The translations under genes and the position numbers were made by a program. The notes beneath the pieces are model-generated. The model had not been told where the DNA came from, did no database searches, and saw only the letters and a program-made list of their open reading frames with translations. Below, piece after piece: positions 30,318 through 48,232 of a DNA stretch of 64,000 bases. The stretch comes from Calditrichia bacterium (GTDB lineage: Bacteria > Calditrichota > Calditrichia > RBG-13-44-9 > J075): the NCBI GenBank assembly GCA_050633245.1, contig JBOEGD010000012.1, positions 32,001 to 96,000 of the forward strand, written 5' to 3'. The stretch's first letter is position 1; every line of letters starts with the position of its first letter.

Positions 30318-30363
30318 TGGTGCTCCCCCCAGGGAGTGTCGAGTGAATACATCTGGGTGGTGA
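30318..30363. mobile_element. Relic attachment site (displaced tRNA-Glu 3' end plus degenerate attP arm)
   Basis: The minus strand reads GGGAGCACCA at 30327-30318; 30331-30363 matches 31622-31654 at 28 of 33 positions. Confidence 0.65.
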
Positions 30364-30502
30364 GGGCGGCACTATATAAATCAATCCACTAATTCGATCT
30401 TATTTGATATCATACACTCAACGTTCAAAATTCAGGGTTGTTCAATAACCAGAGAATCCACTGGGTTGGACAGTTTTTCCGCCTACAGCCGTTGCATATC
30501 TG

Positions 30503-31411: not shown

Positions 31412-31579
31412 ATTTGTCCGTCTTTTTTAGAGTGTAAGTATTCAAGTTCTCCAGGATTGATTTGATTTTAATCTAAAAGATGATTTAAAAAGAGGCAAGT
31501 CTAAAGCCCTCAAGAAGAAAAACACCCCAAGCGATGCGAACCCCTGCAAAACATCCTCTCCATACCCCCATAAAAACAA

Positions 31580-31607: not shown

Positions 31608-31691
31608 GCGCTGTACTCCCAAGGGAGTGTCGAGTCTATACTTGTAGGTGGTGAAGCAATACACAATTAACTTGCAAAATAGATATAATAT

Positions 31692-32000
31692 CTACTTCAG
31701 GATCTTATTCAATTGTATTAAGATCTTCTCTTTCGATGGAACTCCATCTGGATAATATCTTCATGTAGGAGCGGCTGGTGCTGGTCTTGACACCCCAAAT
31801 AGATCTGTTGAATTTAGTAATATAGTTGGTGTTCCATAACCTGTTCTGCAATCGTGAGCAGGGAGCTCACCTACATCAATTATTTCTACTTGTTGCGGTA
31901 GACGCAGTTCTTTAATTGCATCAATTAAGTGCTCATACATTGTTTGAGAGTTTGAACAATTGGAACGCGTTAAGAAGCAGATTTTTTTATTTCTATCCAT
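31692..32000 (-). CDS. Small thioredoxin-like selenoprotein (UGA readthrough at 31763-31761)
   Basis: ORF ...GYGTPTILLNSTDLFG...APT-TGA continues in frame as RYYPDGVPSKEKILIQLNKILK*. U falls at the C-R-x-Y position of GSPTIL..D.F thioredoxin-like proteins. SECIS-like hairpin 12 nt downstream. Confidence 0.75.
31735..31748 (-). promoter_or_regulatory. Putative SECIS hairpin
   Basis: Minus strand GATGG-AGTT-CCATC with GT in the apex, 12 nt after the in-frame TGA. Confidence 0.7.
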
Positions 32001-32272
32001 AAAAATTTTTCATGGTTGATTGATAAAAATTAAGATTTTACTGAACAAACTCTTTGAAATGCTTTTTTGGATCGTTCTTAATACTGCCAACGTTTTATAG
32101 TTGAAACGAAACAAATACAATGCGTCTTAAAATATACTATATATTTCCTTTACTACAATGATCGCTGGATCTTAATCAACTTAAAGTTTCCAAGATTTAT
32201 CGGATAAGGCTAAAGTCCCCGACATTTTTGTTCTCACAAAACTACCGCGATCTAGATCCACTCCTGAAATAG

Positions 32273-32312
32273 AACGAGTCTACTCCGGGGGAATGAAGTA
32301 GACTCGTTTTTT
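32273..32312. terminator. Stem-loop downstream of the large secreted-protein gene
   Basis: AACGAGTCTACT...AGTAGACTCGTT-TTTT. Confidence 0.65.
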
Positions 32313-32367
32313 AATAGCAATGCCGCCGGGGTCCAGTAGGCAACATCACTGTAATTATGGGCTATAC

Positions 32368-35300
32368 TTACTTAAGAAGCAGAACCCGTTGGGTTTGCTC
32401 ATGTTGACTCGTGCTTAATCTTACAAAATACGTTCCGCTGGCAACACCGGAGGCGTTCCACTGATAGTTGTGCTCACCGGCATTTAGATTCTGATTCACC
32501 AGTGTTTGCACCAAACGACCATTAATATCGTAAACCTTCAGATTTACAATCGTGCGTTCCGGAATACTAAAGCGGAAGGTGGTTGACGGATTAAACGGGT
32601 TCGGATAATTGGGAAAGAATGTAAATTGATTTGGTATATTGGTCTCATCTCCTATACCGGTCGGATTACCAATCGTGAATGAGCCGCTTGCCACAGCACT
32701 GCCTAAGAATGCGGCATCGACTGATTGTATGGACCAGACGTAACTTCCTTCTTCCAGGTTATCGATTAACCAGTTGACGGTAGCCCCAACATTTCCGGGT
32801 TCCGGCAGGCGATAGGCCGTGGATATCGGCGTACCGTTTTGAGAAACCTTTAATTCATAGGTCAATGCCGCAGCGGGCGTATGGTCGTCATTGGCAGCAT
32901 TCCATGTAAATACTACAGAGCTATCCGGTTGAACGTCAGCACTGAGACCATTAGGAGGTGTCGGTGCCAGGTTTTGCCCGGGGGAATCGTTGCGATAGAG
33001 ATGCATCTGAGCTTCCACTAGCCCATTGCCACCGGGGACAAAATACTGTCCGGCTATAAAGTAATCGAGATCCCCCTCACCATCAATATCTAACCAGGAG
33101 AAGGTTCCGCCGCGGGTTCCGGATGCCCTTGGGGCAGGCAGATCAGTCCCGGACTGACTGAAAACACCCCCATTGTTTTCATATATCCGTGCACGCCCTT
33201 CGATCTGCGAGCCTGAGTTATAAGTGCCTCCAAGCAGAATGTCGACATCGCCATCATTATCGTAATCCGCCCATGTAACGGCATTTACATCAAACCAGCC
33301 TTCACAGGGAATACAGTTGATAATCTCGATTGGTGAGTAGACATCATTATCGTTCTGATAGATTCGCAAGACGTTTTTATAGGTGCCGTCGGTATCATTA
33401 ACATTTCCACCGATCAGAATATCCAAATCTCCGTCGGCATCATAGTCGCCCCAATTTGCAGCCCCATGTTCTATAGTCAGTGAGTCGATGATATCCTGAG
33501 GGGTAAAGAATCCGTTTCCATCATTGCGATAGCGGCGAATAAAACCATCAAAGGTTAGCGGCTCTATATTAATTAGCAGTAAATCCAGATCCTGGTCGCC
33601 GTCATAATCTGCCCAAAAGCTCTGCGCGTGTGGAGCCGAGGTAAGTGCTGCATTCGTTTCCTCAGTAAAGATCCAGCCACCGCTGCCGTTTGGCCCATCA
33701 TTGCGCATCAGCTTTGTTTCATGTAAAAAAGTGATGTTATTATAAACCGACGGTAGCAAAAGATCGGCATCACCGTCGTTATCGTAATCTGCCCATGAAA
33801 TAGAATTCAGATCAAACTCTGCCTGGCCGTTGTCTTCCCAATATCCGGGCAGGAGCGTATTCGTCGGCACCATACTACCGGCATCATTTCGATATAGAAT
33901 TGTTTTTCCGTTCGTCCCAACCACCAAGTCCGGATCATTATCATTATCGACATCTCCCCAGGCCATGTCGGATGCTCCGGATGTCAGGGTGTCGAAGGGG
34001 AGGGAGATGTATTCAAAGTCCCATTGGGTTTGTGTGGATGAACCGTTATTTTGCAATAGTAGTAGCCGATAATCAACGCTTTGGTTATAGACGACATAAA
34101 AACCGAGCACCGCAATATCCAGATCGCCATCCAGATCAAAATCAGCCGGTGCGGTGGTAATAACCCAGAAGTCCTCATCCTGCGGCGTTACAAAAACGGA
34201 ATCAATGGGAGTAACTTCTGTAAATGCTCCAAAGGTACCTCCGGGACCAGGCTGAGCAACTACAGCTCGGAGAGTCGTATTGGAGTCGCCGTCATCATCA
34301 ACCACGGTTAATCTTACCAGATAGGTGTTTGCTGCGGCAAAGGTATGCGACGGATTGCGCTCGGTTGAAGTCGTCCCGTCACCAAACTCCCAGAACCAGC
34401 TGATAATTGTTCCGTCCGGGTCATTACTGGTATCGGTAAAATCAACGCTTAAACCAATGGTGTTAAACGTGAATGATGCTGCCGGTGGACGGTTTAACGG
34501 TGGAGGTGGTGGACCATTAAAATGTTCAATATATCCTTGAAATCCACCTGTCCAGGCATTGCCTGCTGTATCTGCTACGATCGTGCTAAAATTGCCAAAG
34601 CCTTCTGAACCAATTTGTAGCACTGCCCAGTTTTGTCCACCGTTAGCGGAATAATAGGCTAGGTTATCCAGTGTACTGAGCCAGATTTCATTTGGACCGA
34701 GTAAGTAGATGTCACTGAATTTAACCGACGTGGTTTGGGTCGGGAGTTCTTCCCAGGTTAATCCGCCGTCATTGCTGCGGGCCGCATAGCCGCCCCAGCC
34801 CACCACATAGCCGGTTGCTTCATCATAAAAATCAATATCAGCAACCTGAAACGGTGAGCCCGGCAGGGTTCCGGAAAACCAGTTCTGGCCGTTGTCATTC
34901 GTGATTTGCAATGGGCCACCGACGTTTACCGCCCAACCGTTTGGACCTTCGAAGTCCACAGCAACATACAGTCCTCCAAAGCCCGGTATGCCGGTCCATG
35001 TAGCTCCACCGTCAATTGTTTGTAATAATGCTCCTCCAATAGGCCCACTTCCGATAACCCACCCTTCAGATGGGCTACTGAATTGTAGATCATAACCGGA
35101 AAAGCCGCTGGGTTTTGCAATCAGAGGCTGCCAGCTTGCACCACCATCACCGCTGATGTGAACTTGTCCTGAGTTATCGATAATTGCTATTTCCTGAGCA
35201 GAAATAATGTCCACCGCTTCAATGTCTACGAAACCAAGACTTTGCTGCAGCTGCCATTTTCCATTTCCATCTGTCGTCAGGATAGTCCCTTCATCCCCTA

Positions 35301-36480
35301 CAGCAATCATTCGTCCATCATCGAAACGAGCTATGTCGTTAATTGCCTGACCAACTCCGCTGGATATCTGAGACCATGAGTTACCGCCATCTGTTGATTT
35401 TATAGCAAAGCCGTGACCGTATGCAAAATAGCCGGTTGAGGATGTAGGGAAAACAGGTACTGCACTACCGAAAAATCCCGGCCTTGGTCCTGGTGAAGCG
35501 AAAGTTTGACTCCAGGTCGCACCACCATCAATAGACAAATACATGTTTCCATCTTTATCTGCTCCAACAACGTTTTGTGTATCAAGAACTGTTAGAGCCA
35601 ATACGCCGGAAGGCATAACGGTGCCGATATCTGTCCAGGTTGCCCCACCATCTGCTGATCTGAAGACGCGGTTGTCCAAATTAGGAAATGCCCCTGTTCC
35701 CCAGGCAAGAACCGTTGTTTCAGAAAGCACGGTGAAGTTTGACTTTTCATTTGCCGAACCAACATCGATCCATGTTGAACCGCTATTCGTACTACGCATT
35801 ATTCTATCATCCACAATTGCCAGCAGGGTATTAGCAGACAGGTAAGTGGCATCCTTTGCATCGCCGGATAGCAGTAGAGAAATTGTGCTGCCGCCGTCAG
35901 TTGTCCCGTAAAGGCCACTTGCCGAAACGCCCAGTGCGTTTTGAGCATCAAAGAAGTCAAACCGGAATATATCATTTGGAGAAGCAGACCAATTCAGACC
36001 TCCATCAATACTTACCTGTATGCCGAAGTTACCACTGGCGATTCCAAAGTCAGGCGTGTAAAACTCCATAAAATAGGTTGAGCCTAAAAATGGAATCTCT
36101 GTCCAGGTGGTGCCCCCGTCCAATGTCCGGTAATTATTATTTCCATAGGTCCAGCCTCTTTGCGAATCGAGAAAGAATATACCGTTCAGCGGTGAATTCA
36201 GGTTGATCGGCACATTTCTCTGTACCCAGGTATCACCTCGGTCTGTTGATTCAAAGAGTGCACCATTGTTGTCAAAAGGGTCATCATCGGTGGCAAGAAA
36301 TATTCTATTTTCAGTCGGTGCAGCCATACCGCCTACATCAAGATCTGTTGGAACAGGACTCTCTGTCGACCATTGCGTGAAACCTGTGGAGTGCAGCAAA
36401 AAACACATCAGGAAGGTTAATAAGAATGTTGTTGAGCGATATGTATTTTGTATTACTAGTTTTGTTTTGAACGTTTTCAT
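32368..36480 (-). CDS. Large secreted protein: YCF48/BNR (Asp-box) propellers + PKD + FG-GAP/VCBS repeats + Fn3-like + secretion CTD
   Basis: Many S/T.DGG.TW Asp-boxes; WEFGDG PKD motif; repeated W.DYD.DGD.D FG-GAP; NYPNPFNPST. Confidence 0.85.
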   Translation of the reverse strand: MKTFKTKLVIQNTYRSTTFLLTFLMCFLLHSTGFTQWSTESPVPTDLDVGGMAAPTENRIFLATDDDPFDNNGALFESTDRGDTWVQRNVPINLNSPLNGIFFLDSQRGWTYGNNNYRTLDGGTTWTEIPFLGSTYFMEFYTPDFGIASGNFGIQVSIDGGLNWSASPNDIFRFDFFDAQNALGVSASGLYGTTDGGSTISLLLSGDAKDATYLSANTLLAIVDDRIMRSTNSGSTWIDVGSANEKSNFTVLSETTVLAWGTGAFPNLDNRVFRSADGGATWTDIGTVMPSGVLALTVLDTQNVVGADKDGNMYLSIDGGATWSQTFASPGPRPGFFGSAVPVFPTSSTGYFAYGHGFAIKSTDGGNSWSQISSGVGQAINDIARFDDGRMIAVGDEGTILTTDGNGKWQLQQSLGFVDIEAVDIISAQEIAIIDNSGQVHISGDGGASWQPLIAKPSGFSGYDLQFSSPSEGWVIGSGPIGGALLQTIDGGATWTGIPGFGGLYVAVDFEGPNGWAVNVGGPLQITNDNGQNWFSGTLPGSPFQVADIDFYDEATGYVVGWGGYAARSNDGGLTWEELPTQTTSVKFSDIYLLGPNEIWLSTLDNLAYYSANGGQNWAVLQIGSEGFGNFSTIVADTAGNAWTGGFQGYIEHFNGPPPPPLNRPPAASFTFNTIGLSVDFTDTSNDPDGTIISWFWEFGDGTTSTERNPSHTFAAANTYLVRLTVVDDDGDSNTTLRAVVAQPGPGGTFGAFTEVTPIDSVFVTPQDEDFWVITTAPADFDLDGDLDIAVLGFYVVYNQSVDYRLLLLQNNGSSTQTQWDFEYISLPFDTLTSGASDMAWGDVDNDNDPDLVVGTNGKTILYRNDAGSMVPTNTLLPGYWEDNGQAEFDLNSISWADYDNDGDADLLLPSVYNNITFLHETKLMRNDGPNGSGGWIFTEETNAALTSAPHAQSFWADYDGDQDLDLLLINIEPLTFDGFIRRYRNDGNGFFTPQDIIDSLTIEHGAANWGDYDADGDLDILIGGNVNDTDGTYKNVLRIYQNDNDVYSPIEIINCIPCEGWFDVNAVTWADYDNDGDVDILLGGTYNSGSQIEGRARIYENNGGVFSQSGTDLPAPRASGTRGGTFSWLDIDGEGDLDYFIAGQYFVPGGNGLVEAQMHLYRNDSPGQNLAPTPPNGLSADVQPDSSVVFTWNAANDDHTPAAALTYELKVSQNGTPISTAYRLPEPGNVGATVNWLIDNLEEGSYVWSIQSVDAAFLGSAVASGSFTIGNPTGIGDETNIPNQFTFFPNYPNPFNPSTTFRFSIPERTIVNLKVYDINGRLVQTLVNQNLNAGEHNYQWNASGVASGTYFVRLSTSQHEQTQRVLLLK

Positions 36481-36526
36481 TTTATCCCCATTTGCAAATA
36501 CGGTTGGTCTTTTCGTGCTATGATGA

Positions 36527-37744
36527 TTACTTCATTAAAAGCATTTTACGCATCAATGCGGAGCCATTTTGTTTTAACTCGTAGAAATAAACACCGCTCG
36601 GTAAATATTCTGCCTCAAATGTATAGGTGTATTCTCCTGATGGGGCTGTTGCGACGTTTATAGATTGAACTATCTGTCCAACAGCGTTAAATATATTTAG
36701 CTGAACAGGACCCGCTTTTAGAACCCGGTAACGAATTGTAGTGGATGGATTAAAGGGATTTGGGTAGTTTTGATCAAGTTCGATTCCTTCAGGGTGGATG
36801 GACGTTACATCCTCAATACCGGTTGCGGATTCAAACACATATATCACGCCCGCATCTCCGACAGCCCAGCCACGCTCGGGGGAGGCAAAGTGTACTTCGG
36901 TAATTTCACCAAAGGCTGTTCCATTGAACTGCAGCGTCCAGTTTAAGCCGCCATCTGTGGTTTGGTAGATATTATGGCCTTCGCTGGTTGCCCATCCCAG
37001 TTCATTATTGATAAAAAACAGGCCGTTAAGATCTTCTACTATTCCTGTTGAACGTGAGGACCAGGTAGTTCCACCGTTATCGGTAAACAAAAGCGAAGGA
37101 GTGCTGCTGCGGCTAATATAGCCAACTTGGCTGTCTAGAAACTGTACGTCCTGAATGTCATCGCCGCCCGGTGATTGGCTAACCCAACTGGCTCCGGCAT
37201 TCTGAGTATGACGCAGAAGAGCTCCGTTACCGACGATCCAGGCGAGGTCACTTCCGATTGCATCAATGGAGCGGATTCTTGAGCCGCTTCCGGTTACCAA
37301 GCTGCTCCAGTTTACTCCGTTGTCCACAGACCGGATTGCCGCGCCACCCTCTCCGGCAGCCCAGACAACGTCACCACTGCCCCAGGCAACACCACGAAGC
37401 TGCGAGGCCGTAGGGGAGGTCTGCAAGGTCCAGGATTGGCCGCCGTTTGTGGTTTGAAAGACCGTGCCGCCATCACCTACAACAATCCCGAGATTGGCAT
37501 CTTTAAATGCTATGCCCTGTAAATCAGCGCCAGTTAATGCCACCGAATTCCAGTTCATCCCACCATCTGTTGTATGTAGTAACACTCCATTATCTCCGCA
37601 GACCCAGGCTTCAGCAGCACTTAGGGCAAACACATCATCAAGGTCAGCCGTTACGCCACTGTTTTGTGCTGACCAGTTTTGCGCATGTAAACCCATGCTG
37701 ATTACCAGCAGGAAAAACCAAATTAACTTAGCATTCTTTTTCAT
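36527..37744 (-). CDS. YCF48-like beta-propeller secreted protein with secretion CTD
   Basis: GGAGAGG RBS before MKKNAK; HTTDGG..W repeats; QNYPNPFNPST...RKMLLMK. Confidence 0.85.
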   Translation of the reverse strand: MKKNAKLIWFFLLVISMGLHAQNWSAQNSGVTADLDDVFALSAAEAWVCGDNGVLLHTTDGGMNWNSVALTGADLQGIAFKDANLGIVVGDGGTVFQTTNGGQSWTLQTSPTASQLRGVAWGSGDVVWAAGEGGAAIRSVDNGVNWSSLVTGSGSRIRSIDAIGSDLAWIVGNGALLRHTQNAGASWVSQSPGGDDIQDVQFLDSQVGYISRSSTPSLLFTDNGGTTWSSRSTGIVEDLNGLFFINNELGWATSEGHNIYQTTDGGLNWTLQFNGTAFGEITEVHFASPERGWAVGDAGVIYVFESATGIEDVTSIHPEGIELDQNYPNPFNPSTTIRYRVLKAGPVQLNIFNAVGQIVQSINVATAPSGEYTYTFEAEYLPSGVYFYELKQNGSALMRKMLLMK

Positions 37745-37783
37745 AATCCTCTCCTTTCCATCGCCTTTTGGCAACGGATATTG

Positions 37784-39619
37784 TTAAAAGTGAAACCCGA
37801 AACTAAAAAACATTGTTGGAATACCCATCAGTGCCAGCCCACTTAAGCTGACGCCAACAAGCACCAGCAAAAATGGCACAATCACAGCGGTCTGTATAAA
37901 CGGGTTTAGCCAGGAAGACCGATGCAGTAAAGGCATAAGAGCAAAGCCGAAAGCAAGCCCCAGGAAAGATATCTGCATTAGCTTCAGGCAGACGATTCCG
38001 AACAAAATACCACAGGCAACCTCGAATAATTGTACCGGCTTTTGATCCGGATGACTGCGGTAGAAAAACTCTTTTACACCAGTCCTGAACCGGTCCTTAA
38101 ATGGAGGTAAAGAGCTTTTCTCAACGTTCTCGGATTTATCGCCGGTTACCAGGAAAGTTGCCTTACCGGTGAGCATGTAAGACAGTACCCCAACGCTGGA
38201 TAGGGGGCCCAGCGTGGCATAAACTGCCGTACTGTGGGTGAGGAATTTCGCGAGCCTGACTGGTTGCCTATACATATCCAACAAAAAGCACAGTACCGGG
38301 GCAAATAGCGTAAGTGTGGTAAGGATAAAAAAGTCCGCTGTTAGCAAGACATTAAATCCCGGATCCAGCACATAAATTGGCAACACCCATTCACTGCCTG
38401 CGAGAGCGATGGTTACATCTTTTTCGATACCAAAATACCAGGGGAACAGCAGGTTGGTATTGATCATAAAGAGAAAGTAAAACAGCGTCAGCGGCAGGTT
38501 GAGCGTAGGGAAAAGAATATCAAATTTCTCCTGCCAGGTTATGGTTCTGCTCTTTAAAAGGCGCCCGGATTCATAACGCAGAAATTCACAGGTACCGCGG
38601 GTCCATTTCATATGGCGGACGCGAAAGCTTCGTATATCTTCGGGAAAGTCTTCATAGCAGACCACCTCTTTCGCGAAGTAGCCTCGCCAGCCAAGCTCCC
38701 TTGCGCGAATGGCAAAGGCGAGGTCTTCGCTAACAATTTCCGGGAATCCGCCCATGGCAGTCCAGCATTCCTTGCGCAACACTGCACCATGTCCCAGAAA
38801 CATCACAAATCCAAATCTGTTGCGTAATGGCTGATACCAGCGCCAGTGGATATCAATGCCGATTCCCATAGCTTTGGCAAGCGGCGAATCTGCAGCAGGA
38901 TTGCATTTATGATTAGCCTGCACGAATCCAATAGAGCTATCGGCTTCCATATAGGGGACCGTTTTCGAGAGAAAATCCGGTGGTAGAATTTCATCTGCAT
39001 CTGCTATGGCAAAATAAGGCTCATCTAGTTGTTGCAGAGCATTGTTGAGGTTTCCGGCTTTAAATCCTTTCCTATCTGTTCGCCGGATTACTCGAACATT
39101 TGAATGCCGGGAAGCAAACGCATCTACTTTTTGTTTGTATTCAACGGAGCTACTGTCATCAAGTAAGTAAACGGTATAGTTTTTATAGTCCTGCCGAACA
39201 CAGGATTCCACACTAGCCTCAACAAAGTCATTGCATGTTGTATATAAAAGCGCTATCGGTGGTTCAAAAGCATCCTTATTGATTGCTGGCAACGTGGGTT
39301 CAGGCGGAAGGAAGTATTTATTGATTAACGCAAAAACAATAACACCGATATTAAAAAAGCCATATAGCCATGCAACCAGAACAAATACGATAAAGAACCC
39401 TAATATTCCTTGAGCAATCGGGTCACTGCTAATCGACAAAATGCTGAGCAACCGAGGCATAAACCAGACCATGCTTGCTCCCCACAGAGCAAAGATGAAC
39501 CAATAGAGTGCACTGGAGGGACTTGCAGCCTGAATAGTAGAACTGTATGGCTTCTGCGCTGATGAACATCTTTTCTTTTGTTTATTTTCTATTTGAAGGC
39601 ATAGCGATTCCTGAGTCAT
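37784..39619 (-). CDS. Processive GT2 glycosyltransferase (cellulose-synthase-like), membrane-bound
   Basis: DDS, RKGFKAGNLN, DADE, SEDL, and RHMKW (QxxRW variant); flanking TM helices. Confidence 0.9.
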   Translation of the reverse strand: MTQESLCLQIENKQKKRCSSAQKPYSSTIQAASPSSALYWFIFALWGASMVWFMPRLLSILSISSDPIAQGILGFFIVFVLVAWLYGFFNIGVIVFALINKYFLPPEPTLPAINKDAFEPPIALLYTTCNDFVEASVESCVRQDYKNYTVYLLDDSSSVEYKQKVDAFASRHSNVRVIRRTDRKGFKAGNLNNALQQLDEPYFAIADADEILPPDFLSKTVPYMEADSSIGFVQANHKCNPAADSPLAKAMGIGIDIHWRWYQPLRNRFGFVMFLGHGAVLRKECWTAMGGFPEIVSEDLAFAIRARELGWRGYFAKEVVCYEDFPEDIRSFRVRHMKWTRGTCEFLRYESGRLLKSRTITWQEKFDILFPTLNLPLTLFYFLFMINTNLLFPWYFGIEKDVTIALAGSEWVLPIYVLDPGFNVLLTADFFILTTLTLFAPVLCFLLDMYRQPVRLAKFLTHSTAVYATLGPLSSVGVLSYMLTGKATFLVTGDKSENVEKSSLPPFKDRFRTGVKEFFYRSHPDQKPVQLFEVACGILFGIVCLKLMQISFLGLAFGFALMPLLHRSSWLNPFIQTAVIVPFLLVLVGVSLSGLALMGIPTMFFSFGFHF

Positions 39620-39622
39620 GAT

Positions 39623-41008
39623 CTAATTCCTTTCCAGACGGAGTTTGAGACCAACGGAAATAGTCTGATAGTCCAGAAGGGGCGTTGATTCATATCGATA
39701 TTGAGCATACAGCCAATGCTGATGAAGCAAAAGCAGGTCGGTTTGTAAGGAGGCACTAAAAATGTCGCCTTCTGCAGCAGGGATTACACTTGTGGTTTGA
39801 CCATAAACAACCGAACTGCTAAGCCTAAGAAGAGTATGGACATCGAATGAAGTATTGAGTACTGTCCTCCAGTCGGAATCCCGGCGTTCATTAAAGCTGG
39901 AAAAATACATCAGAGGTTCGAGAAACAGCCTAGGGTTCGGAGAATATCCAAAACCGGCATACCCTGCTAAATCTGACTTCCGCTGTGAGGCAGAAGCAGC
40001 TATTCCACCAGCTTTGATCGTGAAGCTTTTGCCCAGGAAGAAAACTTGCTCAAGACTACCTATCAGCAGTTCCTCGCCTGTAGGGATGTCGACTACTCCC
40101 ATCTCCAGCTTACTGGTCAGGTGTGGAGTAAAATGATTAGACAAGCCTAAAAAATAACCCGGAACCACCTCATTAAGTTGTTGGAAAAATAGATTATCAG
40201 CACCAAGAGAATTGTCATATCTTGCCCAAAAACGCAGATCCTCACCGGGCCAAACTCCCAGCTCAACTGCCCTGAGATCATTAAAGGATTCATTCTTGAA
40301 TTGGCTGTTACCACCTCGAATATCCAGTTCTAAAATTGGTGAACGCCTGGTTGTTTGATGCAGATAGTTTTCATACTCTGAATCAGCAGCTCCCTGCCTA
40401 GATGCCTCACGAAACATTCTGCGCGCATCGCGGAATTTACCCGTAGCATGATACGCTCTACCTAACCCAGCAGATGAAGCGGCATCCAGCTCTCCAATAG
40501 CTTTTAGTTTCTCAAACCACTTAACAGCTTCGGTAGGTTGATTCTGCCATAGAGATGACCAAGCCATTCCTTTAATTGCTTCAGGATGATCCGGCGATTT
40601 GTTTAACAACCTTAAGAACCGATTTTCACCGGCTTCAAAGTCATTTGCCCAAATCAGATTGTAGCCAAGACCTATGAGCGCGTCGGAGTTGTTTGGATGC
40701 GTAACTAAAACGAGCAGAAAATCGGCCTGGGCAGCACTGTAGTTTTTTTGCCAGGCACGCAAATGCGCTCTACTCATTCTTGCCTGAAGATGTTCAGGAT
40801 CTGCTTCCAGGATGCGAGTATAGACTTTCTCTGCATTTGCATAGTCACCCTTATTGGTATAGACCGCAGCCTGATCAAACAGGGATTCTAATGGCACTCC
40901 CTTTTGGGCATGAAGCATTGCGGGTATACAAATGCAAATGCTAATTAATAGATAAACGGATAGCTTTAAGTAACCGTACAAACTGGTGAAGTAATCGCCT
41001 CTCTTCAT
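39623..41008 (-). CDS. TPR repeats plus C-terminal outer-membrane beta-barrel (YaiO/PgaA-like export protein)
   Basis: Signal peptide; about 5 TPRs (PEHLQARMSRA, PNNSDALIGLG); beta-strand C-terminal half. Confidence 0.7.
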   Translation of the reverse strand: MKRGDYFTSLYGYLKLSVYLLISICICIPAMLHAQKGVPLESLFDQAAVYTNKGDYANAEKVYTRILEADPEHLQARMSRAHLRAWQKNYSAAQADFLLVLVTHPNNSDALIGLGYNLIWANDFEAGENRFLRLLNKSPDHPEAIKGMAWSSLWQNQPTEAVKWFEKLKAIGELDAASSAGLGRAYHATGKFRDARRMFREASRQGAADSEYENYLHQTTRRSPILELDIRGGNSQFKNESFNDLRAVELGVWPGEDLRFWARYDNSLGADNLFFQQLNEVVPGYFLGLSNHFTPHLTSKLEMGVVDIPTGEELLIGSLEQVFFLGKSFTIKAGGIAASASQRKSDLAGYAGFGYSPNPRLFLEPLMYFSSFNERRDSDWRTVLNTSFDVHTLLRLSSSVVYGQTTSVIPAAEGDIFSASLQTDLLLLHQHWLYAQYRYESTPLLDYQTISVGLKLRLERN

Positions 41009-41069
41009 AAGTATTCTCCCAGATAATCATTACAAAAAATTTTATTGGAGGGTATCCGGGACAATCCTA

Positions 41070-41085
41070 TTCAAAGTATGTGCCA
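41070..41085 (-). promoter_or_regulatory. Putative sigma54-type promoter of the cargo operon
   Basis: TGGCAC-ATACT-TTGAA about 60 bp upstream of ATG 41008; the -12 element is GA instead of GC. Confidence 0.45.
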
Positions 41086-41480
41086 TTTATGAAGTCTAGG
41101 GGGCTAACTAAAATAGATATAGGTGTTTACAAATCTAAGGAGGATTAGAAGAGGTAAGGAGTTAAAACTCTGACATGCACGGAGGTGCAAAATATGCTGA
41201 TGGGCAAACTATTATATCAAAAGAAATAAACTGAGGAAGAAATTATATAAAATAATTATATACGATATATTGCCCTCCCCTTAAAACAAATCAAAATCTG
41301 ATAATGGATAGTTAATTCAGTTACAGAAAGTTATTATTTAAAGGGGCACAATCTATCTTGATTCACATATTTGGCTTAGTTTTCTAATAAGAAGCCAAAT
41401 ATAAGAATCTGCGATTTATGCAAAATAGTAAGTAGTTTTAAAATCAATTGCTTTTTGAATTAACAAGATAAATCCCCATA

Positions 41481-42416
41481 TCATTCATCCATAATCTGGT
41501 TTACTTCAATATTGATATCCATTGGAGGGGGTACAATATCCCCCTGTCTTAGACGTTGGATTCGCTCTAACTCATTCAGGGCCTTATAAAACTGACGGTT
41601 CAATGCCCCCTCATACCGCAGCAGCCGGTCCAGGCTATCCTTACCGGGCATTTGTCCTAGCTTACTCTTAACTTCCAGAGCCATGCGGTCTTTCTCCTGT
41701 TCTTTGCTCAGAGCCTTTTTGAGTTCTTGAATTTTATCCTGACACTCTTTTACAAGATCATCGCATTTCTTAATGAGGGCTTTCCAGATTTGTGCATCGG
41801 ACCAGTTAAGGGCAGTATTGATAAACTTGTGCAGATCAGGTGCTTCAAGATACTCGGCAATATTATGTTCATCGATTGTTTCATCCAGATCTCCGTGCAA
41901 GTGATCCCAGTTTTCTTCCCAGTCATAGATTTCGCTCAGAGGCACCTTCTTTTTAAATTTTTCCGATAAATCCGCTTTATCTTTTTTCCAATGTTCAATG
42001 ATGCCTTGCTGCTGTTCAATTTCTTCCTGAAGTTTTTCAACCTGATCATGGATCTTTTCGCCCCGCCAGTCTTTCGCATCAAAATAGTAATCCGTTGCAT
42101 AATCTAGGCTGCTGCGAATCAAACCAACCTCATAACGATAAGCCCGGCGTAAACGCCAATACAGTGAGGCAATCTTTTCCAGCAGCATCTCTTCAATAGT
42201 GCCGACCGGTTGGAGCTCCTGCTTCAGGTCATTCAATAGCTGCTCAAATTCTTTTGGATCTTCTGCCCCCTCCCCTTTCAGCACCACAACTTCTTTGGCA
42301 AGCAGACCATGCTTAACAGCATTGAACCTCACAATGGCTTTGCCAGTATCAGTTTTCACTCCACCCTTTTTTGCATTCTTTCGATTGGCTGCAAGCTGCT
42401 TTTTCGAAACGGTCAT
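41481..42416 (-). CDS. Conserved mobile-element hypothetical protein
   Basis: S.KQLAANRKNA...T..GKA...FNAVKHGL N-terminus and LLRYE..LNRQFYKAL C-terminus; coiled coils. Confidence 0.7.
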   Translation of the reverse strand: MTVSKKQLAANRKNAKKGGVKTDTGKAIVRFNAVKHGLLAKEVVVLKGEGAEDPKEFEQLLNDLKQELQPVGTIEEMLLEKIASLYWRLRRAYRYEVGLIRSSLDYATDYYFDAKDWRGEKIHDQVEKLQEEIEQQQGIIEHWKKDKADLSEKFKKKVPLSEIYDWEENWDHLHGDLDETIDEHNIAEYLEAPDLHKFINTALNWSDAQIWKALIKKCDDLVKECQDKIQELKKALSKEQEKDRMALEVKSKLGQMPGKDSLDRLLRYEGALNRQFYKALNELERIQRLRQGDIVPPPMDINIEVNQIMDE

Positions 42417-42433
42417 TATCTTATCCTTTCAAT

Positions 42434-42676
42434 CTAGTTCTTAAATCGTGCGCTGAGTATTAGCCTGAGGGACATTTTCTCTGCTACCTCGCGGGAAAGA
42501 CCACCATCACATTCTATGATGGCTGCTCGTTCATCAAATTGTTCTTTTTCAATCCCTGAAAATCGATCAATTAGAATACGCTGAGCAACCGTTACCAGCT
42601 TTGAGTAGTCTTTTGTTTTCGGAGGATCACAACTCTCTATCCGCCATTCACCTTTTTCAAATATCATTACTTCCAT
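42434..42676 (-). CDS. Small phage/satellite-type hypothetical protein
   Basis: FDERAAIIECDGGLSREVAE motif seen in phage replication-region proteins. Confidence 0.65.
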   Translation of the reverse strand: MEVMIFEKGEWRIESCDPPKTKDYSKLVTVAQRILIDRFSGIEKEQFDERAAIIECDGGLSREVAEKMSLRLILSARFKN

Positions 42677-42691
42677 ACTTGCCCCCTACAC

Positions 42692-42873
42692 AGTTACCAA
42701 GGTAACTATTGGACTTAAACCACTATTTTTATTTCTCTTAACCGGTTACTGAATGGTAACTTCTGGTGACTTTTGGATAGAATTATTTGGCAAGGTTACC
42801 AGAGGTAACCGCTCAGTAACCAGCTTAATCAAGCAAAAACAATGCTTTACAAATCAAAGTTACCCTGGTTACT
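42692..42873. repeat. Iteron-like GGTTAC/GTAACC cluster (candidate origin of the element)
   Basis: About 10 RGTTAC/GTAACY-type copies in both orientations, including palindromes AGTTACC-AA-GGTAACT (42692-42707) and GGTTACC-AGA-GGTAACC (42794-42810). Confidence 0.65.
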
Positions 42874-44676
42874 GTTAGCGGTATATTGACCGCGTGCCTC
42901 CCTGGTTAACTGCCCTTCAGCGTACATTTGAGTAACCAGCTTTTTTATACTGCCTTTCGATTTCCCTGTTTGTTCTGCAATCTCTGTTGGAGAAAGCGGC
43001 TTATCGCTGTTGGAAACCGTTTCGAGGATTTTCTTTCTAGGCTCGCTCAACTCTACATCTTCCGCTTCACCTTGTGATACCCAGAGTCCAGTCGTCTTAT
43101 CAAAAGTGACAGACAGTTTTAAGCTTTCCATATCCCGACCGGTAATGTGCAAAACAGAATCGGTTGCTCCCGGTACCAATACCATTACACAATCAGCAGC
43201 GGCGGTAACGCCGGTCGTGCCGGTAACATCATCAAGGGCATAGTCAGATCGCGTTTTGCGGGTATGATGAATCAGCACAATAGCAAGATGATATTCCATA
43301 GCGATCTTTTGAAGACTTGCTGTTGTCTTATAGTCCTCGGAATACAGATCGCTGTTTCGCTTTGGATTGGCAAAGCGCCCAAAAGTATCTATAACGACCA
43401 TTCGGATATCTTTTTTTTGATCCAGGCAGTTTCTAAGTTGAAGATCCCCACCATCTTCCAGTTGGTTAAAGTCCGGCATAAAATGAAAACTCTCTAATCC
43501 CTTTACTCCCGGATCAAAGCGCAACATAGTTTTAATCCTATCAGCCAAACGGCGCGGAGTATCTTCAAGGCCTAAATAAAGCACTTCCCCTTCTCTGGCC
43601 GAGTAGTCGCTTAACGCTTTACCGCCGGAGGCTATTGCTAAGGACCAGCTAAGAGCCATAAAAGACTTACCGCTTTTGGGTCTTCCTGCTAAGATGGTTA
43701 GACCTTCTGGAACAAGCTTGTCGATTGCCCATTGCGGTTCGGGGAAATCCAGTGTTACTAAATCATGGCCGGAGTAGATTGGAAACTTCCGTGGTAAGGG
43801 CTCATTTGTCGCTTTACTTTCAACAAATTTCGCAGCATCAATTAGCACTTCAATGTCAGGTTTTGTTAGGTTACTCTGATTAAAGTAATCCGATAAATCG
43901 ACGTATTTTTTCGGCAATCTGATCAGTTTTAGTTTATGCTTTTCCTTACCCTCTATTCTCTCAAATACCCCCTGCTCAGTAAGATCCTTATCCAAAAGAA
44001 AAATATGAGTCCCTTTACCCAGCCTTATCTTTACAGTCTTATTATAGTGTGAAACTATGCCATAAGAATCATCCAGCCCCATTTCAATAGCTGTTAGATA
44101 ATCCGTTCTGCCTTCAACGTGGATAAACTTTCGATGCTTAGCTGGATTATAGATTAGTCGTCCTTTTAAAAAGGCCAGAGCATATCCGGCTTTGCTATGG
44201 TTTATCTTTATCCGTGCTTTCTGTAGCGTCTTGAGGGAGTAAGTTTTATTGAGTTTTTCTTTGATGGCTTTCAGGTCTGTATCGGTGGGTTCTCTCAAAT
44301 CGAGCTCATGCAGGGGGTAAAAACGAAATCGGTTTTGAACATCAGAAGAGATAAAGCGCAACTGCATTTTATCAGGCTTCTTCTTCAATCGTGGATCAAG
44401 ATGTTTATCCTCACTCCAGAAACGCTCATCCAGCCAGCGCATTGCCTCAGCACCATCCAGGTTCAAAACCTGCTTAACCAGTTCTATATTATTTCCCTGC
44501 AATCCGCAGCCGAAACAGGTAAAACCTTTGCCGTCCTTTGCAATGCTCAAGCTGGCTTTTTTATCTTCATTATTATGTGCCGCTTTATTGAAGCAATGCC
44601 AGTTGCTGTTTTTGCCTTTCTTCAGGCCGAGTTCCTCGGCAATATTTGTCGTTAGTATTCCCTTGTAGTCCCTCAT
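42847..44676 (-). CDS. Primase-helicase: CHC2 zinc finger + degenerate Toprim + RepA/AAA_25 helicase + wHTH
   Basis: C..H...CFGC zinc finger; VEGRTD and DLSDY; Walker A GRPKSGKS; VVIDT; IHHTRK; C-terminal LSPTEIAEQTGKS. Confidence 0.85.
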   Translation of the reverse strand: MRDYKGILTTNIAEELGLKKGKNSNWHCFNKAAHNNEDKKASLSIAKDGKGFTCFGCGLQGNNIELVKQVLNLDGAEAMRWLDERFWSEDKHLDPRLKKKPDKMQLRFISSDVQNRFRFYPLHELDLREPTDTDLKAIKEKLNKTYSLKTLQKARIKINHSKAGYALAFLKGRLIYNPAKHRKFIHVEGRTDYLTAIEMGLDDSYGIVSHYNKTVKIRLGKGTHIFLLDKDLTEQGVFERIEGKEKHKLKLIRLPKKYVDLSDYFNQSNLTKPDIEVLIDAAKFVESKATNEPLPRKFPIYSGHDLVTLDFPEPQWAIDKLVPEGLTILAGRPKSGKSFMALSWSLAIASGGKALSDYSAREGEVLYLGLEDTPRRLADRIKTMLRFDPGVKGLESFHFMPDFNQLEDGGDLQLRNCLDQKKDIRMVVIDTFGRFANPKRNSDLYSEDYKTTASLQKIAMEYHLAIVLIHHTRKTRSDYALDDVTGTTGVTAAADCVMVLVPGATDSVLHITGRDMESLKLSVTFDKTTGLWVSQGEAEDVELSEPRKKILETVSNSDKPLSPTEIAEQTGKSKGSIKKLVTQMYAEGQLTREARGQYTANSNQGNFDL

Positions 44677-44852
44677 GCTACTTTCTCCTTGCTGGCCGAA
44701 GCGCGGGGAATCAGCTTCTGGGGTAATTGCAATGAAGACTTCCCCTTTTCATCCTTTAGAATTTGCTTGGCAATGATCAAGGAAAATAGAGCAATTCCTT
44801 TGTTGAGAGCATCCTGCGGGATTTGTAGCTTCTCTGCTAAATTCAAACTCAT
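44673..44852 (-). CDS. Small hypothetical protein (59 aa, below ORF-track cutoff)
   Basis: MSLNLAEKLQIPQDALNKGIALFSLIIAKQIL...KEKVA*; its stop overlaps the primase start (ATGA). Confidence 0.55.
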   Translation of the reverse strand: MSLNLAEKLQIPQDALNKGIALFSLIIAKQILKDEKGKSSLQLPQKLIPRASASKEKVA

Positions 44853-44872
44853 TTCCAGTTTCTTCCGTTATC

Positions 44873-45112
44873 CTAATGTTTTTGCTTCTTAGTAGGCTTC
44901 TTGTTCATCAAGAGAAAAAGATCATCGAAATCAGCGTCCTTGAAAACCATCTGAAACTTTTTTCGCATCTCAGGAGAGGGATAACGTATTCCGTTCAGAA
45001 GTTGAGAAATATATCCGCTGCTTGTGTTCAGTTTGATTGCTAAGCCATTTTGTGACAAATTTTTCCTTGCCATCAATTCTCTGATATTTTCCGCCTTCAG
45101 TTGAACCTTCAT
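44873..45112 (-). CDS. XRE/Cro-like HTH regulator
   Basis: LSQNGLAIKLNTSSGYISQLLNG.RYPS...FDDLF; divergent from the repressor gene. Confidence 0.85.
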   Translation of the reverse strand: MKVQLKAENIRELMARKNLSQNGLAIKLNTSSGYISQLLNGIRYPSPEMRKKFQMVFKDADFDDLFLLMNKKPTKKQKH

Positions 45113-45121
45113 TGAATTCTC

Positions 45122-45214
45122 GCTTGCAAAATTTAACCACTTTGTTTGCTGAATTATAAAACATGAAGTCAACGATAGCAAATTTTTTGCAAAATTAGTG
45201 CTTGCAAAATTTAA
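45122..45214. promoter_or_regulatory. Operator-like repeats between the divergent HTH genes
   Basis: GCTTGCAAAATTTAA at 45122-45136 and 45200-45214; partial TTGCAAAATT at 45187-45196. Confidence 0.65.
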
Positions 45215-45267
45215 GCAGACAATAGTATATTAGCTGAGATCACCGCACTGAAAACCAAGGAGAAGAA

Positions 45268-45624
45268 ATGGGTAAAGAGTTTGGAGCGTACCTAAGAAAA
45301 TTAAGAGATGATCTGGGTATGAGCCTTAGACAAGTTCAACAAGCAGCAAAAATTTCTAATAGCTATCTGTCTCAGATTGAATCCGGCGAAAGGGGAATAC
45401 CTAATTTTAAGATTCTAAGTAGATTAGCAGAGGCCTATGGAGTACCTGTTGCACAATTAGCTGAGGCTGCTGAAAAGGCTGAAGCTGGAGATGCGCTTGG
45501 AGAACCAAGTTTATCGAAAGATGCAGCTTTTGTGTCCAGAGGATACGAGAAACTATCAGATGATAACAAAAAAATGTTGAGTGAGTTTCTACAACACCTT
45601 ATTAACAAGGAAAAGAAAGAATAA
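45268..45624 (+). CDS. XRE-family repressor (ImmR/CI-like)
   Basis: FGAYLRKLR...MSLRQV...ISNSYLSQIESGER; AAGGAG RBS. Confidence 0.9.
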   Translation: MGKEFGAYLRKLRDDLGMSLRQVQQAAKISNSYLSQIESGERGIPNFKILSRLAEAYGVPVAQLAEAAEKAEAGDALGEPSLSKDAAFVSRGYEKLSDDNKKMLSEFLQHLINKEKKE

Positions 45625-45628
45625 GGAT

Positions 45629-46588
45629 ATGACTGAGTGGCTAAAATCGCCTGCATATTGCGGAATGAATCCGCTTTTGTATGGGAGGAGAGTTGTTAAA
45701 GAAATGAACCTGGTAGCCCCCCCGGTTAATGAATTAGATGTTGCAGATTTTTTGGGCTACGAAGTTAAAAAGATTAAAAAGAGCGATACTGAGAATTTTC
45801 CAGGGGTTTGGGATAGTTTAAAAACCGCCTGCGCACATCTGTTCAGAGATAAGAATCTAATTCTAATCCGGGATGATATGACGCTCGGAAGAGATCGTCA
45901 GGGTGTATTTCACGAAATAGGCCACGATCAAATCCCCTCACATAGAGGCCTGAACTATTCATGTAATGAGTCTGCTCTCACCCCAATTCGCCACAAATTA
46001 GTAGAGAAAGAAGCATTTCTATGTGGAAACGAAATAATGATGCCTGTCGAATGGATTTCGCAGGATATACTTGATCTTGATATTTCCTTTCGATCTATTA
46101 GTAAGATTGCCAATCGCTATCAAGCTTCTTTTGAAGCTACAGCAATTAGATACGCTTTAACCCACCCAGGAATTTGTGCAATTATTCTTGTCGAGTCCAA
46201 TGTTAACAAAAGTAAACAAGTAGATTCATTTTGCGGTTGTCACACTCATCAATTGACACTACCGGTAACCTGCCGAGAAACTAAGCCTAAAGAGGCTTAC
46301 CCCTTCCCGCTGGTAGTAAAGTATAGTGTTAAATCAAAGGCGTTCGTTGATTCAATCCGGCCGGGAATGGGAATCCGTGAGAATAATTTGCTTTTTCATA
46401 TCTGGAATTCGGATAAAGATTTTCGAGGAGAGTTGCCGTCTGAGGCCTTTAGAATGAGAAAGCGAACAGCATACCAAGCCGAAATCAAGATTCTAAAAAA
46501 TCCTACAAGAATGTTCATTCTACTCTGGCAGAATCACTTTCAGAGAAGACTTAAATATGAATATGGGAATATCATCACAGAAAGTTAA
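45629..46588 (+). CDS. ImmA/IrrE-family metallopeptidase (anti-repressor)
   Basis: R..VFHEIGH HExxH, EKEA....EIMMP, ASFEATAIR motifs. Confidence 0.85.
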   Translation: MTEWLKSPAYCGMNPLLYGRRVVKEMNLVAPPVNELDVADFLGYEVKKIKKSDTENFPGVWDSLKTACAHLFRDKNLILIRDDMTLGRDRQGVFHEIGHDQIPSHRGLNYSCNESALTPIRHKLVEKEAFLCGNEIMMPVEWISQDILDLDISFRSISKIANRYQASFEATAIRYALTHPGICAIILVESNVNKSKQVDSFCGCHTHQLTLPVTCRETKPKEAYPFPLVVKYSVKSKAFVDSIRPGMGIRENNLLFHIWNSDKDFRGELPSEAFRMRKRTAYQAEIKILKNPTRMFILLWQNHFQRRLKYEYGNIITES

Positions 46589-46596
46589 GGCACTCT

Positions 46597-48198
46597 ATGA
46601 AACGCTGCATCATAATCGCCCGCTCTTCAACCGACCGGCATGATGTTTCCTGCAAATCTCAGATTGCAGAAATCGAAGCGGAAGCTAGACGGCAAAACGA
46701 AGTAATCGTAAAAACAGCCGAATTTCCCAGAAAAAAGCATAGCGATTTTCTGGAAGATCCAGACTTCAAAGATATTCTGGCAGAAGCAAAGTTAAGGGAT
46801 CGGGAATGGGATAAAATCTGGTTTTATGATACTTCCCGCCTGTCGCGGAATCGCATGAAGGCACAGGTAACAAAAGCTTTTTTTCGCAAGCACGGTATTG
46901 AAGTCGGTTTTCTGAAGCTTCCGAAGACCGGAAATGAACCGATTGACAATGTGCTGGAAGGCATACTGGAAACCTTCGATCAACTGCACAGCGATTTTTC
47001 GCGGGCTGGCTCTATTCGCGGTCAGAAACAAAATATACGCTCCGGCTACCGCGCCGGGGGTAGTGCCCCCTACGGCTATCTGCTGAAAAAGCACAGCCTC
47101 GGTATGAACATCGATAAGGTTGAAATTACCAAGTCCACCCTTGAACCTCATCCTGAACAATTTCCCATTGTCCGAGAATACCTCCAGCGCCGAGCCGCAG
47201 GTGAAAGCCGGGGCTCCATACTGCGAGACTTCAAGAAACGTAGCATCAAAAGCGCCAAAGGGAAAGCCTATTGGTCACACTCTACTTGCAACTGTATAGA
47301 AAACAATCTTGATCTCTATTGCGGGCATCTGGTTTACAATCGACACAATAAGCGTATTGATGGAAAGTTTATCGGCGGTCAAAAGTATCGCCCCAGAGAA
47401 GAGTGGGAAATTCGCGAGAATGCCCATGAAGCCGCAATCACCACCAAAGAAGCTGATAAGATTCGCAAGCAACTAGATGCCAGGCGCACGCATAAGAAGC
47501 CAACCGCCAGAAACTATCTGTTAACCGGCTTCCTGAAATGCGGCGTTTGTAAAGGTCCGATGATTGGCGACAGCGGTTTTTATACGTGCAGCCATAAGCG
47601 TAAAAAGATATCAGACTGTAACCAGAACAATATTTTAGCCGAGCGGATTGATAAGAAAGCTATCGCCTTTGTAAAAAACGTTTTGTTGAAACAAACCCAT
47701 TTTGAAGCCATCGTTGAGCAAACCCGCAAAGCCTATGAAAAGGAAATCGGCAAATCCGCTGAACAAAAAAAGAGAGTCGAGCGGGAGCAGCTAAAACTGG
47801 ATAAACAAATTGAACGAGTAATGGACCTCTATTCCAGAGGAAAAATTTCCCCGGATATTATAGAGAAGCAAATTCAAGCACTCGAAAGTCAGAAAGCCGA
47901 CTTGCAGCTTGAGATGGATGGTGAGCAAGATATCCGTATTGCCCTGGAAGCAGCCGAAACGGAATTAAGTGAAACGGTTATCCGGCAATATGTAGACAAG
48001 TTTGAAGTATTACTGAGTGAAGATAATCTGGAGTTGATGCGGGAATTTTTGAAAACATTTATCTCTGAGATTGAGTTAGCACCACGGGCAGGGGGTAAAA
48101 CGCAAAAGCGGGCAGTGAACGTTTTCAGTCACATACCCGCTTTTACAAGGATAAAACTTGTACTCCCAAGGGGATTCGAACCCCTGTTGCCGCCGTGA
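46597..48198 (+). CDS. Large serine recombinase (integrase); last codons overlap tRNA-Glu antisense
   Basis: ARSST catalytic motif, DTSRLSRN, APYGY, HEAAIT, YLLTGFLKCGVC...YTC zinc ribbon, coiled coil. Confidence 0.93.
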   Translation: MKRCIIIARSSTDRHDVSCKSQIAEIEAEARRQNEVIVKTAEFPRKKHSDFLEDPDFKDILAEAKLRDREWDKIWFYDTSRLSRNRMKAQVTKAFFRKHGIEVGFLKLPKTGNEPIDNVLEGILETFDQLHSDFSRAGSIRGQKQNIRSGYRAGGSAPYGYLLKKHSLGMNIDKVEITKSTLEPHPEQFPIVREYLQRRAAGESRGSILRDFKKRSIKSAKGKAYWSHSTCNCIENNLDLYCGHLVYNRHNKRIDGKFIGGQKYRPREEWEIRENAHEAAITTKEADKIRKQLDARRTHKKPTARNYLLTGFLKCGVCKGPMIGDSGFYTCSHKRKKISDCNQNNILAERIDKKAIAFVKNVLLKQTHFEAIVEQTRKAYEKEIGKSAEQKKRVEREQLKLDKQIERVMDLYSRGKISPDIIEKQIQALESQKADLQLEMDGEQDIRIALEAAETELSETVIRQYVDKFEVLLSEDNLELMREFLKTFISEIELAPRAGGKTQKRAVNVFSHIPAFTRIKLVLPRGFEPLLPP

Positions 48199-48232
48199 AA
48201 GGGCGGAGTCCTAACCACTAGACGATGGGAGC
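48161..48232 (-). tRNA. tRNA-Glu(TTC)
   Basis: GCTCCCATCGTCTAGTGGTTAGGACTCCGCCC-TTTCAC-GGCGGCAACAGGGGTTCGAATCCCCTTGGGAGTA cloverleaf. Confidence 0.96.

Follow-up and report, generated by a model that had tools for sequence, protein, structure and literature searches.

The stretch of DNA analysed here (the window) comprises 64,000 nucleotides from a Calditrichia bacterium (positions 32,001 to 96,000 of contig JBOEGD010000012.1, assembly GCA_050633245.1) and harbours an integrated mobile island, non-conjugative and non-phage, at 31612-48172. The island measures 16,547 bp and is bounded by a 14-bp direct repeat, the two copies of which, 31612-31625 (the attL core) and 48159-48172 (the attR core), are the only ones in the 6.35-Mb assembly, even when one mismatch is allowed. 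The right copy lies inside a tRNA-Glu(UUC) gene (48160-48232, minus strand), and running into this gene from the opposite strand is an open reading frame (ORF) at 46597-48198 (plus strand) that encodes a large serine recombinase (LSR) of 533 residues in the integrated state. The LSR frame ends inside the tRNA gene, its TGA stop codon (48196-48198) being the complement of U35-C36-A37 in the anticodon loop, so that the tRNA gene is read antisense in the last eight codons and the stop. Of the 35 tRNAs detected in the assembly no other is a tRNA-Glu, and this one (anticodon ttc) must therefore be preserved upon integration. It is the last gene of a Pro-Arg-His-Glu tRNA cluster that has the same order in related genomes; the tRNA itself has a G1-U72 pair and no encoded CCA.

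The initial annotation took this ORF for the LSR of a mobile element, and the protein evidence agrees. Pfam finds three domains, namely Resolvase (PF00239, residues 5-150, E 3.9e-12), Recombinase (PF07508, 186-296) and Zn_ribbon_recom (PF13408, 308-355), and a PHROG integrase profile matches as well. Across 40 sequences, residues R9, S10, S11, Q22, D78, R81 and R84 vary little or not at all; they can be paired by eye with the catalytic residues R8/S10/Q22/D81/R82/R85 of Bxb1, as listed in PMC12884075. The AlphaFold model has a mean predicted local distance difference test score (pLDDT) of 82.5, with long helices at 366-413 and 419-456 and strands at 489-511, and Pfam, model and profile all place a zinc ribbon with an embedded coiled coil after the Recombinase domain. 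A single-sequence search of the PDB gave no match at 1e-3, and a profile built from 40 family members was needed. This profile matches SPbeta SprA (E 1.9e-19, over positions 50-498) as well as the PhiC31, TP901-1 and A118 integrases, the last over positions 246-506. Foldseek likewise ranks SprA (E 1.5e-17) and the PhiC31 and Bxb1 DNA complexes as the best matches of the model, at 13-20% sequence identity to the classic integrases in the structural alignments. By domain content, profile and predicted fold, the ORF is a true LSR. It is present in one copy in the genome, and Pfam and PHROG scans found no other recombinase among the main ORFs of the island.

The attachment site of the free element can be computed by fusing the P side, which ends at 48172, with the P' side, which starts at 31626. 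In the resulting 148-nt join there is a single outstanding symmetry centre, at the AA dinucleotide 48168-48169 (31621-31622 in the left repeat copy), around which 16 of 24 arm positions are complementary; the next-best centre scores 12. A score of at least 16 is reached at 417 positions of the 6.35-Mb genome (6.6e-5 per position), and with about 13 possible centres inside the 14-bp repeat the chance of finding such a centre is therefore about 1e-3. The 24-nt P arm (48144-48167, plus strand) lies in the LSR frame, where it encodes ..FTRIKLVLP, and the 24-nt P' arm occupies 31623-31646 at the far end of the island, where the P' segment 31626-31654 (plus strand) would also supply the free form with its last nine LSR codons and a stop (31652-31654). 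These arms are imperfect inverted repeats around a non-palindromic dinucleotide that lies within the 14-bp identity of attL and attR, as seen in LSR sites. A symmetric attP of about 50 bp within the 3' end of the integrase gene had been proposed before, and both its coordinates and its sequence were recovered here, along with an arm complementarity of 6/6 in the inner part and 9/10 in the outer part (10/12 over the outer 12). The AA crossover proposed with it is, judging from the symmetry, the most likely one. In the tRNA, AA corresponds to positions 65/66, where the 3' strand of the T stem meets that of the acceptor stem, and these two strands form a short inner palindrome, CCC-AA-GGG.

From this arrangement a mechanism can be proposed in which the island was put into the 3' end of tRNA-Glu by its own LSR. 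The enzyme would recognise an attP of about 50 bp, with the left arm in the last recombinase codons and the right arm at the other end of the island, and would exchange strands at the AA dinucleotide. The P arm copies the acceptor 3' strand of the tRNA, so that integration would rebuild the tRNA intact. The integrated frame would then run antisense through the T arm to the TGA, which leaves its last eight residues dictated by the tRNA, while the last nine residues of the free form would be dictated by the P' arm. The integrated protein ends in ...KLVLPR-GFEPLLPP* and the computed free form in ...KLVLPR-ECRVYTCRW*, exactly as first annotated; integration thus exchanges the last eight (integrated) to nine (free) residues of the LSR. 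In this locus the alternative tail diverging at the crossover is a computed one, and in relatives such tails are seen directly in free-form contigs. Taken together, the anatomy of the island and its crossover are well supported and very probably correct, the exact position of the crossover being the one that symmetry would favour. For annotation, this defines the exact ends of the island, the integrase and attP, attB, attL and attR, and it explains why the integrase gene seems to run into a tRNA.

The same layout recurs throughout a large family. A protein search returned 64 homologues at E <=1e-10, and among those of full length the majority, at identities as low as about 30%, carry the tRNA-coded pattern ..(A/V)(S/L)P(R/T/G)G(F/L/V/I)EP.. 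at their end. A profile scan with one genome per species yielded 70 loci. The LSR stop lies inside a minus-strand tRNA-Glu in 42 of these and inside a tRNA-Met in 4, the records of which are titled Solirubrobacterales or uncultured bacterium. In another 7 the tail is tRNA-like in the absence of an ARAGORN call, in 5 the LSR ORF is cut by the contig end, and in 12 nothing at the stop suggests a tRNA. Of the loci with the stop in a called tRNA (46/70), 40 overlap it by exactly 41 nt. Hosts, going by record titles, include Desulfobacterota, Betaproteobacteria, Nitrospinota, Calditrichaceae, Rokubacteria and Solirubrobacterales. The left end could be found in 8 loci (with 10 kb available), giving islands of 5.8-11.4 kb. 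In three loci (L020, L021 and L031) the identity between attL and attR stops exactly at AA, and of the six tRNA-Glu loci for which attL was found, five have their best attP centre at the same position of the tRNA. In both such tRNA-Met loci the best centre is a GG inside or at the end of the repeat. This distant tRNA-Met(CAT) branch (L064, L072, L074 and L077, with L068, L069 and L075 added by their tails) shows the same 41-nt overlap, and its tail reads ..AGAGFEPATFGL.

Free forms of the family can also be observed. The IMG/VR contigs include phage-size genomes with the LSR in the middle of the contig, and, taking both collections together, 8 of 13 free-form contigs have a symmetric site (14-18 of 24) directly after TGGCGTCCCC, 60-85 nt before the stop. 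These eight natural attP sites are direct evidence for an intragenic attP in this LSR family. Several IMG/VR provirus records of about 40 kb (among L088-L092 and L103) end 3 nt past the LSR stop, which indicates that the predicted provirus boundary cuts inside the tRNA. An attP within the integrase's own gene is thus typical of a large family, and its effect on the enzyme in the window is probably small.

What the tail exchange does to the protein can be approached through the model and through the tails of relatives. Residues 517-533 have pLDDT <50 and no secondary structure, the last strand ends at 511 (505-511), and the conserved fold ends near profile position 506 (the limit of the A118 alignment); the residues coded by the P arm and the swapped tail therefore both fall in a predicted disordered end. 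Free-form tails were gathered in three ways, as computed from junctions, as seen in free-form contigs and as seen in database proteins. The seven that belong to the clade of the window (P0001, P0013, P0020, P0033, L020, L021 and L031) range from 9 to about 45 residues and share neither a length nor an end motif, and none of the seven ends in Ala-Ala. Most likely, then, going by the model and the sequence comparison, the tail exchange in this element is neutral and simply follows from an attP located at the end of a gene.

The picture in sister clades is different. Of all free-form tails, 11/26 end in Ala-Ala (e.g., ..RRAA, ..KLAA, ..KKAA and ..IVAA), as against 21 of 580 control ORFs of at least 100 residues in 19 of the same loci. 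All 11 belong to two clades, the proteobacterial/phage clade (9/16) and the tRNA-Met clade (2/2), compared with 0/7 in the clade of the window. A naive binomial calculation gives 6.5e-10 for this enrichment, a figure that is overstated since the loci are related. The LSRs that carry such tails are 20-54% identical pairwise, save for three close pairs at 69-72%. Different loci use different Ala codons and stop codons yet keep the residues, a pattern that points towards selection acting on the end of the peptide. The tails concerned, in which Ala-Ala often follows Arg or Lys, are those of L094, L095, L098, L105, L106, L109, L045, L064, L077, P0052 and P0056. An Ala-Ala C-terminus is a key part of the ssrA tag, and such an end can be likened to the ssrA or MuA signals for ClpX. 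By this analogy, the Ala-Ala tails of the free forms are candidate C-terminal degrons that integration would remove, and they provide a concrete case in which to test whether integration state governs the stability of an integrase.

The remaining genes of the island comprise cargo, a replication gene and a regulatory module. Cargo genes occupy 32368-41008 (minus strand) and encode a secreted propeller protein of 1370 residues, a BNR protein sorted by the type IX secretion system, a GT2 glycosyltransferase and a TPR protein. They are followed by a primase-helicase with a CHC2 zinc finger and an AAA_25/DnaB-like domain (42847-44676, minus strand), which, to judge from these domains, is probably the replication protein of the excised element. 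The LSR gene is immediately preceded by an XRE-type repressor (45268-45624) and an ImmA/IrrE-type metalloprotease (45581-46588), which together span 45268-46588 on the plus strand. Gene order and Pfam matches place repressor, protease and integrase in one direction, facing a divergent promoter region, on the other side of which lie two small minus-strand genes (44673-45181), a 102-residue helix-turn-helix (HTH) protein (44873-45181) and a 59-residue ORF (44673-44852). Promoter-like sites are found on both strands at 45153-45231 by a pattern scan in which the number of sites is within the shuffle expectation. The region also holds a 25-nt direct repeat, 84% alike, at 45115-45139 and 45193-45217, the copies of which are likely operator sites. 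An XRE-ImmA-LSR series facing a divergent small HTH gene is the layout of ICEBs1, and this likeness gives room for a conventional recombination directionality factor (RDF) among the small divergent genes; the HTH protein and the 59-residue ORF are unproven candidates for Cro- or excisionase-like factors. The initial annotation had recognised no RDF, and this still holds, but the ICEBs1-like module leaves the ordinary RDF route open, and a separate factor expressed from this module's divergent promoter is the likelier determinant of directionality.

Just outside the left end of the island are the remains of what is read, from sequence similarity, as an earlier related element at the same tRNA locus. 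At 30320-30455 (plus strand), repeat and alignment searches find a remnant left end (attL') with a core-like part, a P'-arm-like part with the same stop position and about 100 nt that resemble the end of the element. The second copy of the P' arm (30327-30363) is alike at 31/37 positions (84%), and the similarity spans about 135 nt. A decayed attR-like site, consisting of P-arm-like, core-like and tRNA T-arm-like stretches, lies at 31510-31546 (plus strand; an 80% repeat with alignment). Between the two, the only gene is a PD40/TolB-like one (30503-31411, minus strand), for which tblastn found no match in 11 relative loci of about 2-3.5 kb, too short for a conclusion. The B-arm-like part of the left remnant resembles a different tRNA 3' end, with an encoded CCA. 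A relative (G007, locus L008) has two tandem tRNA-Glu genes, so the loss of a second copy is plausible here.

Sequence data on the present state of the element come from close copies and public runs. Across 40 related genomes, none of the same genus, the LSR was found in none; the Pro-Arg-His-Glu cluster is conserved in these relatives, and its downstream flank is not comparable. Four public runs from three studies contain 14-20% of the sampled words, as contigs only; these are low-depth contigs of the element or its relatives, and one of them spans the attR junction. The run search, made for DNA, listed none recorded as RNA. A single-protein search gave no match in the genome contigs, and in the metagenome contigs it found L084 and one distant match, neither of which supplied a free-form tail for the close clade of the window. 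The 1.5-kb contig L084 has the same attR junction at 86% DNA identity and 96% protein identity (residues 354-533). It carries an in-frame stop in the LSR (L084:3-542) at a coverage of about 2, which may be a sequencing error or the mark of a dead copy.

Several observations weigh against the reading given above, that of an LSR acting on an attP in its own gene with a neutral exchange of tails. The symmetry of the computed attB at AA is weak (8/24), and inspection by eye for an inward shift of the outer attP motif in attB, as in the A118 model, gave no convincing match. At L071 the best attP centre lies elsewhere (11/24), and no clear site stands where expected in 5 of the 13 free-form candidates. 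The 40 related genomes provide no empty attB for comparison, and no attP (48172-31626) or attB (31611-48173) joint was present in the low-depth contigs, which are uninformative on excision. The P'-arm stop has been kept in the neighbouring remnant, which may hint that the free-form tail is constrained, or that the DNA site alone is. Neutrality is also argued from disorder and a lack of conservation, but disordered C-termini house degrons too, and the Ala-Ala end that appears to be selected in the sister clades bears on neutrality as well. Some of these points would fit an island that is an immobile fossil with a symmetric site of no present function, an idea to which the missing excision junction, the in-frame stop of the near-identical L084 and the decayed sister element next door lend weight. 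We regard it as improbable, as the LSR frame is intact over 533 codons and has the invariant residues of the family, no difference separates the repeat copies over their 14 bp, the P and P' arms retain 16/24 matching positions, and the regulatory and replication genes are intact; the element may be active today.

The initial annotation had gone further and suggested that the two tails make functional isoforms that set directionality or stability. As a working switch, in which the two forms would differ in stability or activity and integration state would act back on the enzyme, contributing to directionality with no classical RDF, the exchange has several points in its favour: the layout is kept across LSRs only about 25-35% identical in several phyla, the Ala-Ala ends of the sister clades are constant in residues and variable in codons, and there are tested precedents in IntP/IntX of phage Mx8 (PMC6070905) and in the removal of an ssrA-like tag in phage BPs (PMC4557955), with the same speculation already published for DsiB (PMC3146451). 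For the window, the evidence runs the other way. A BPs-type degron would have ..AA on the free form, and the computed tail here ends in ..CRW and that of the remnant copy in ..SGW; the clade shares no motif, the relatedness of the loci tempers the Ala-Ala statistics, the tail is disordered and the regulatory module is an ordinary one. The suggestion thus finds no support in this element, where it seems about as improbable as a fossil island, while it is a reasonable idea for the family and may hold in the sister clades. A fuller version, in which attP was placed in the LSR gene so that integration state would be written into the enzyme, the free tail (with its Ala-Ala end in the sister clades) marking it for rapid turnover, the integrated tail being inert with antisense damping besides, and ..CRW serving as a different, unrecognised signal, is a shade less probable again; if true, it would give a serine integrase with built-in control of directionality or timing. 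The main effect of integration could, alternatively, be on RNA. The strong intrinsic terminator of the tRNA operon (31607-31580, minus strand; a 12-bp stem and a T run, in the B arm of attB) now lies just outside attL, 16.5 kb from tRNA-Glu owing to the island, and inside the LSR gene the minus strand has only a weak 5-bp terminator-like stem (47408-47391). Read-through from the tRNA operon, which has a promoter-like site (10/12) just upstream of tRNA-Pro (48690-48663), is therefore possible, and transcripts antisense to the LSR gene might damp its expression in the integrated state. This is the likeliest of the alternatives, though still a doubtful one, given that it builds on pattern scans in which the number of sites is within the shuffle expectation and that 3' processing of the tRNA may limit read-through. 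A neutral exchange of tails remains the preferred reading for the window.

In comparison with known systems, the element shares its domain order, fold, attP of about 50 bp, imperfect inverted arms and non-palindromic dinucleotide with SPbeta SprA, PhiC31, Bxb1, A118/LI and TP901-1. These classic serine integrases are not known to target tRNA genes or to have attP in their own gene. A closer counterpart is found in Dehalococcoides, where McMurdie et al. 2011 (PMC3146451) describe DsiB, a serine recombinase of 540 residues, the gene of which always overlaps attL and ssrA at its 3' end; the authors raise the possibility that the enzyme is fully functional in only one state, circular or integrated. 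As in the window, DsiB has about 540 residues, lies at the edge of a tRNA-like (tmRNA) 3' target and has its stop outside the island. It differs in that the target is ssrA and not tRNA-Glu, and in that it pairs with a small serine recombinase, DsiA, that the island lacks. The account of DsiB maps neither a crossover nor a symmetric attP, and the likeness is one by description.

Among tyrosine recombinases, the same principle is illustrated by phage Mx8, in which attP lies in the integrase gene and int acquires, on integration, a new 3' end that changes its properties (PMC6070905; cited in PMC4383910). The location of attP, the tRNA target and the new 3' end are all as in the window, while the chemistry and the architecture of the attachment sites differ from those of a serine recombinase. 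The segment exchanged in Mx8 is also said to be long, compared with the 8 to 9 residues exchanged here. In mycobacteriophage BPs, integration strips the repressor of an ssrA-like tag at its C-terminus, and the integrase has a proteolysis signal too (PMC4557955). BPs resembles the window in having attP inside a coding gene; unlike in the window, the split gene is that of the repressor, the integrase is a tyrosine recombinase and the tag is present, whereas the free-form tail here is free of Ala-Ala.

The target of the family is also of interest. The Islander paper (PMC4383910) states that serine integrases are not known to target tRNA genes and that the Mx8 and SSV integrases extend across attP. 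For Group 1 proviruses of Thermotogota, the preprint 10.1101/2020.11.07.368316 reports serine recombinases next to tRNA-Glu and proposes that it is recognised, with others at tRNA-Phe and tRNA-Pro; the shared tRNA-Glu target is likewise a match by description, attachment sites and gene overlap not being part of it. Among the titles, abstracts and passages covered by the literature search, none describes a pan-phylum family of tRNA-Glu LSRs or an Ala-Ala tail on a serine integrase. The word 'tRNA' occurs 0 times in the main text of the Durrant et al. preprint (10.1101/2021.11.05.467528), whose supplements may list such sites. Set against the Islander statement, the loci above make up a very broad family, one of serine integrases with tRNA-Glu or tRNA-Met as target. 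Given the short sites and the near-universal presence of tRNA-Glu, such enzymes could be of use as integration tools that would find landing sites ready in many bacteria. The layout itself has already been published for DsiB and for phage Mx8. The island is thus a new member of a known layout and brings no new principle; what it adds to these systems is the breadth of the family, a mapped crossover and the Ala-Ala ends of the sister clades.

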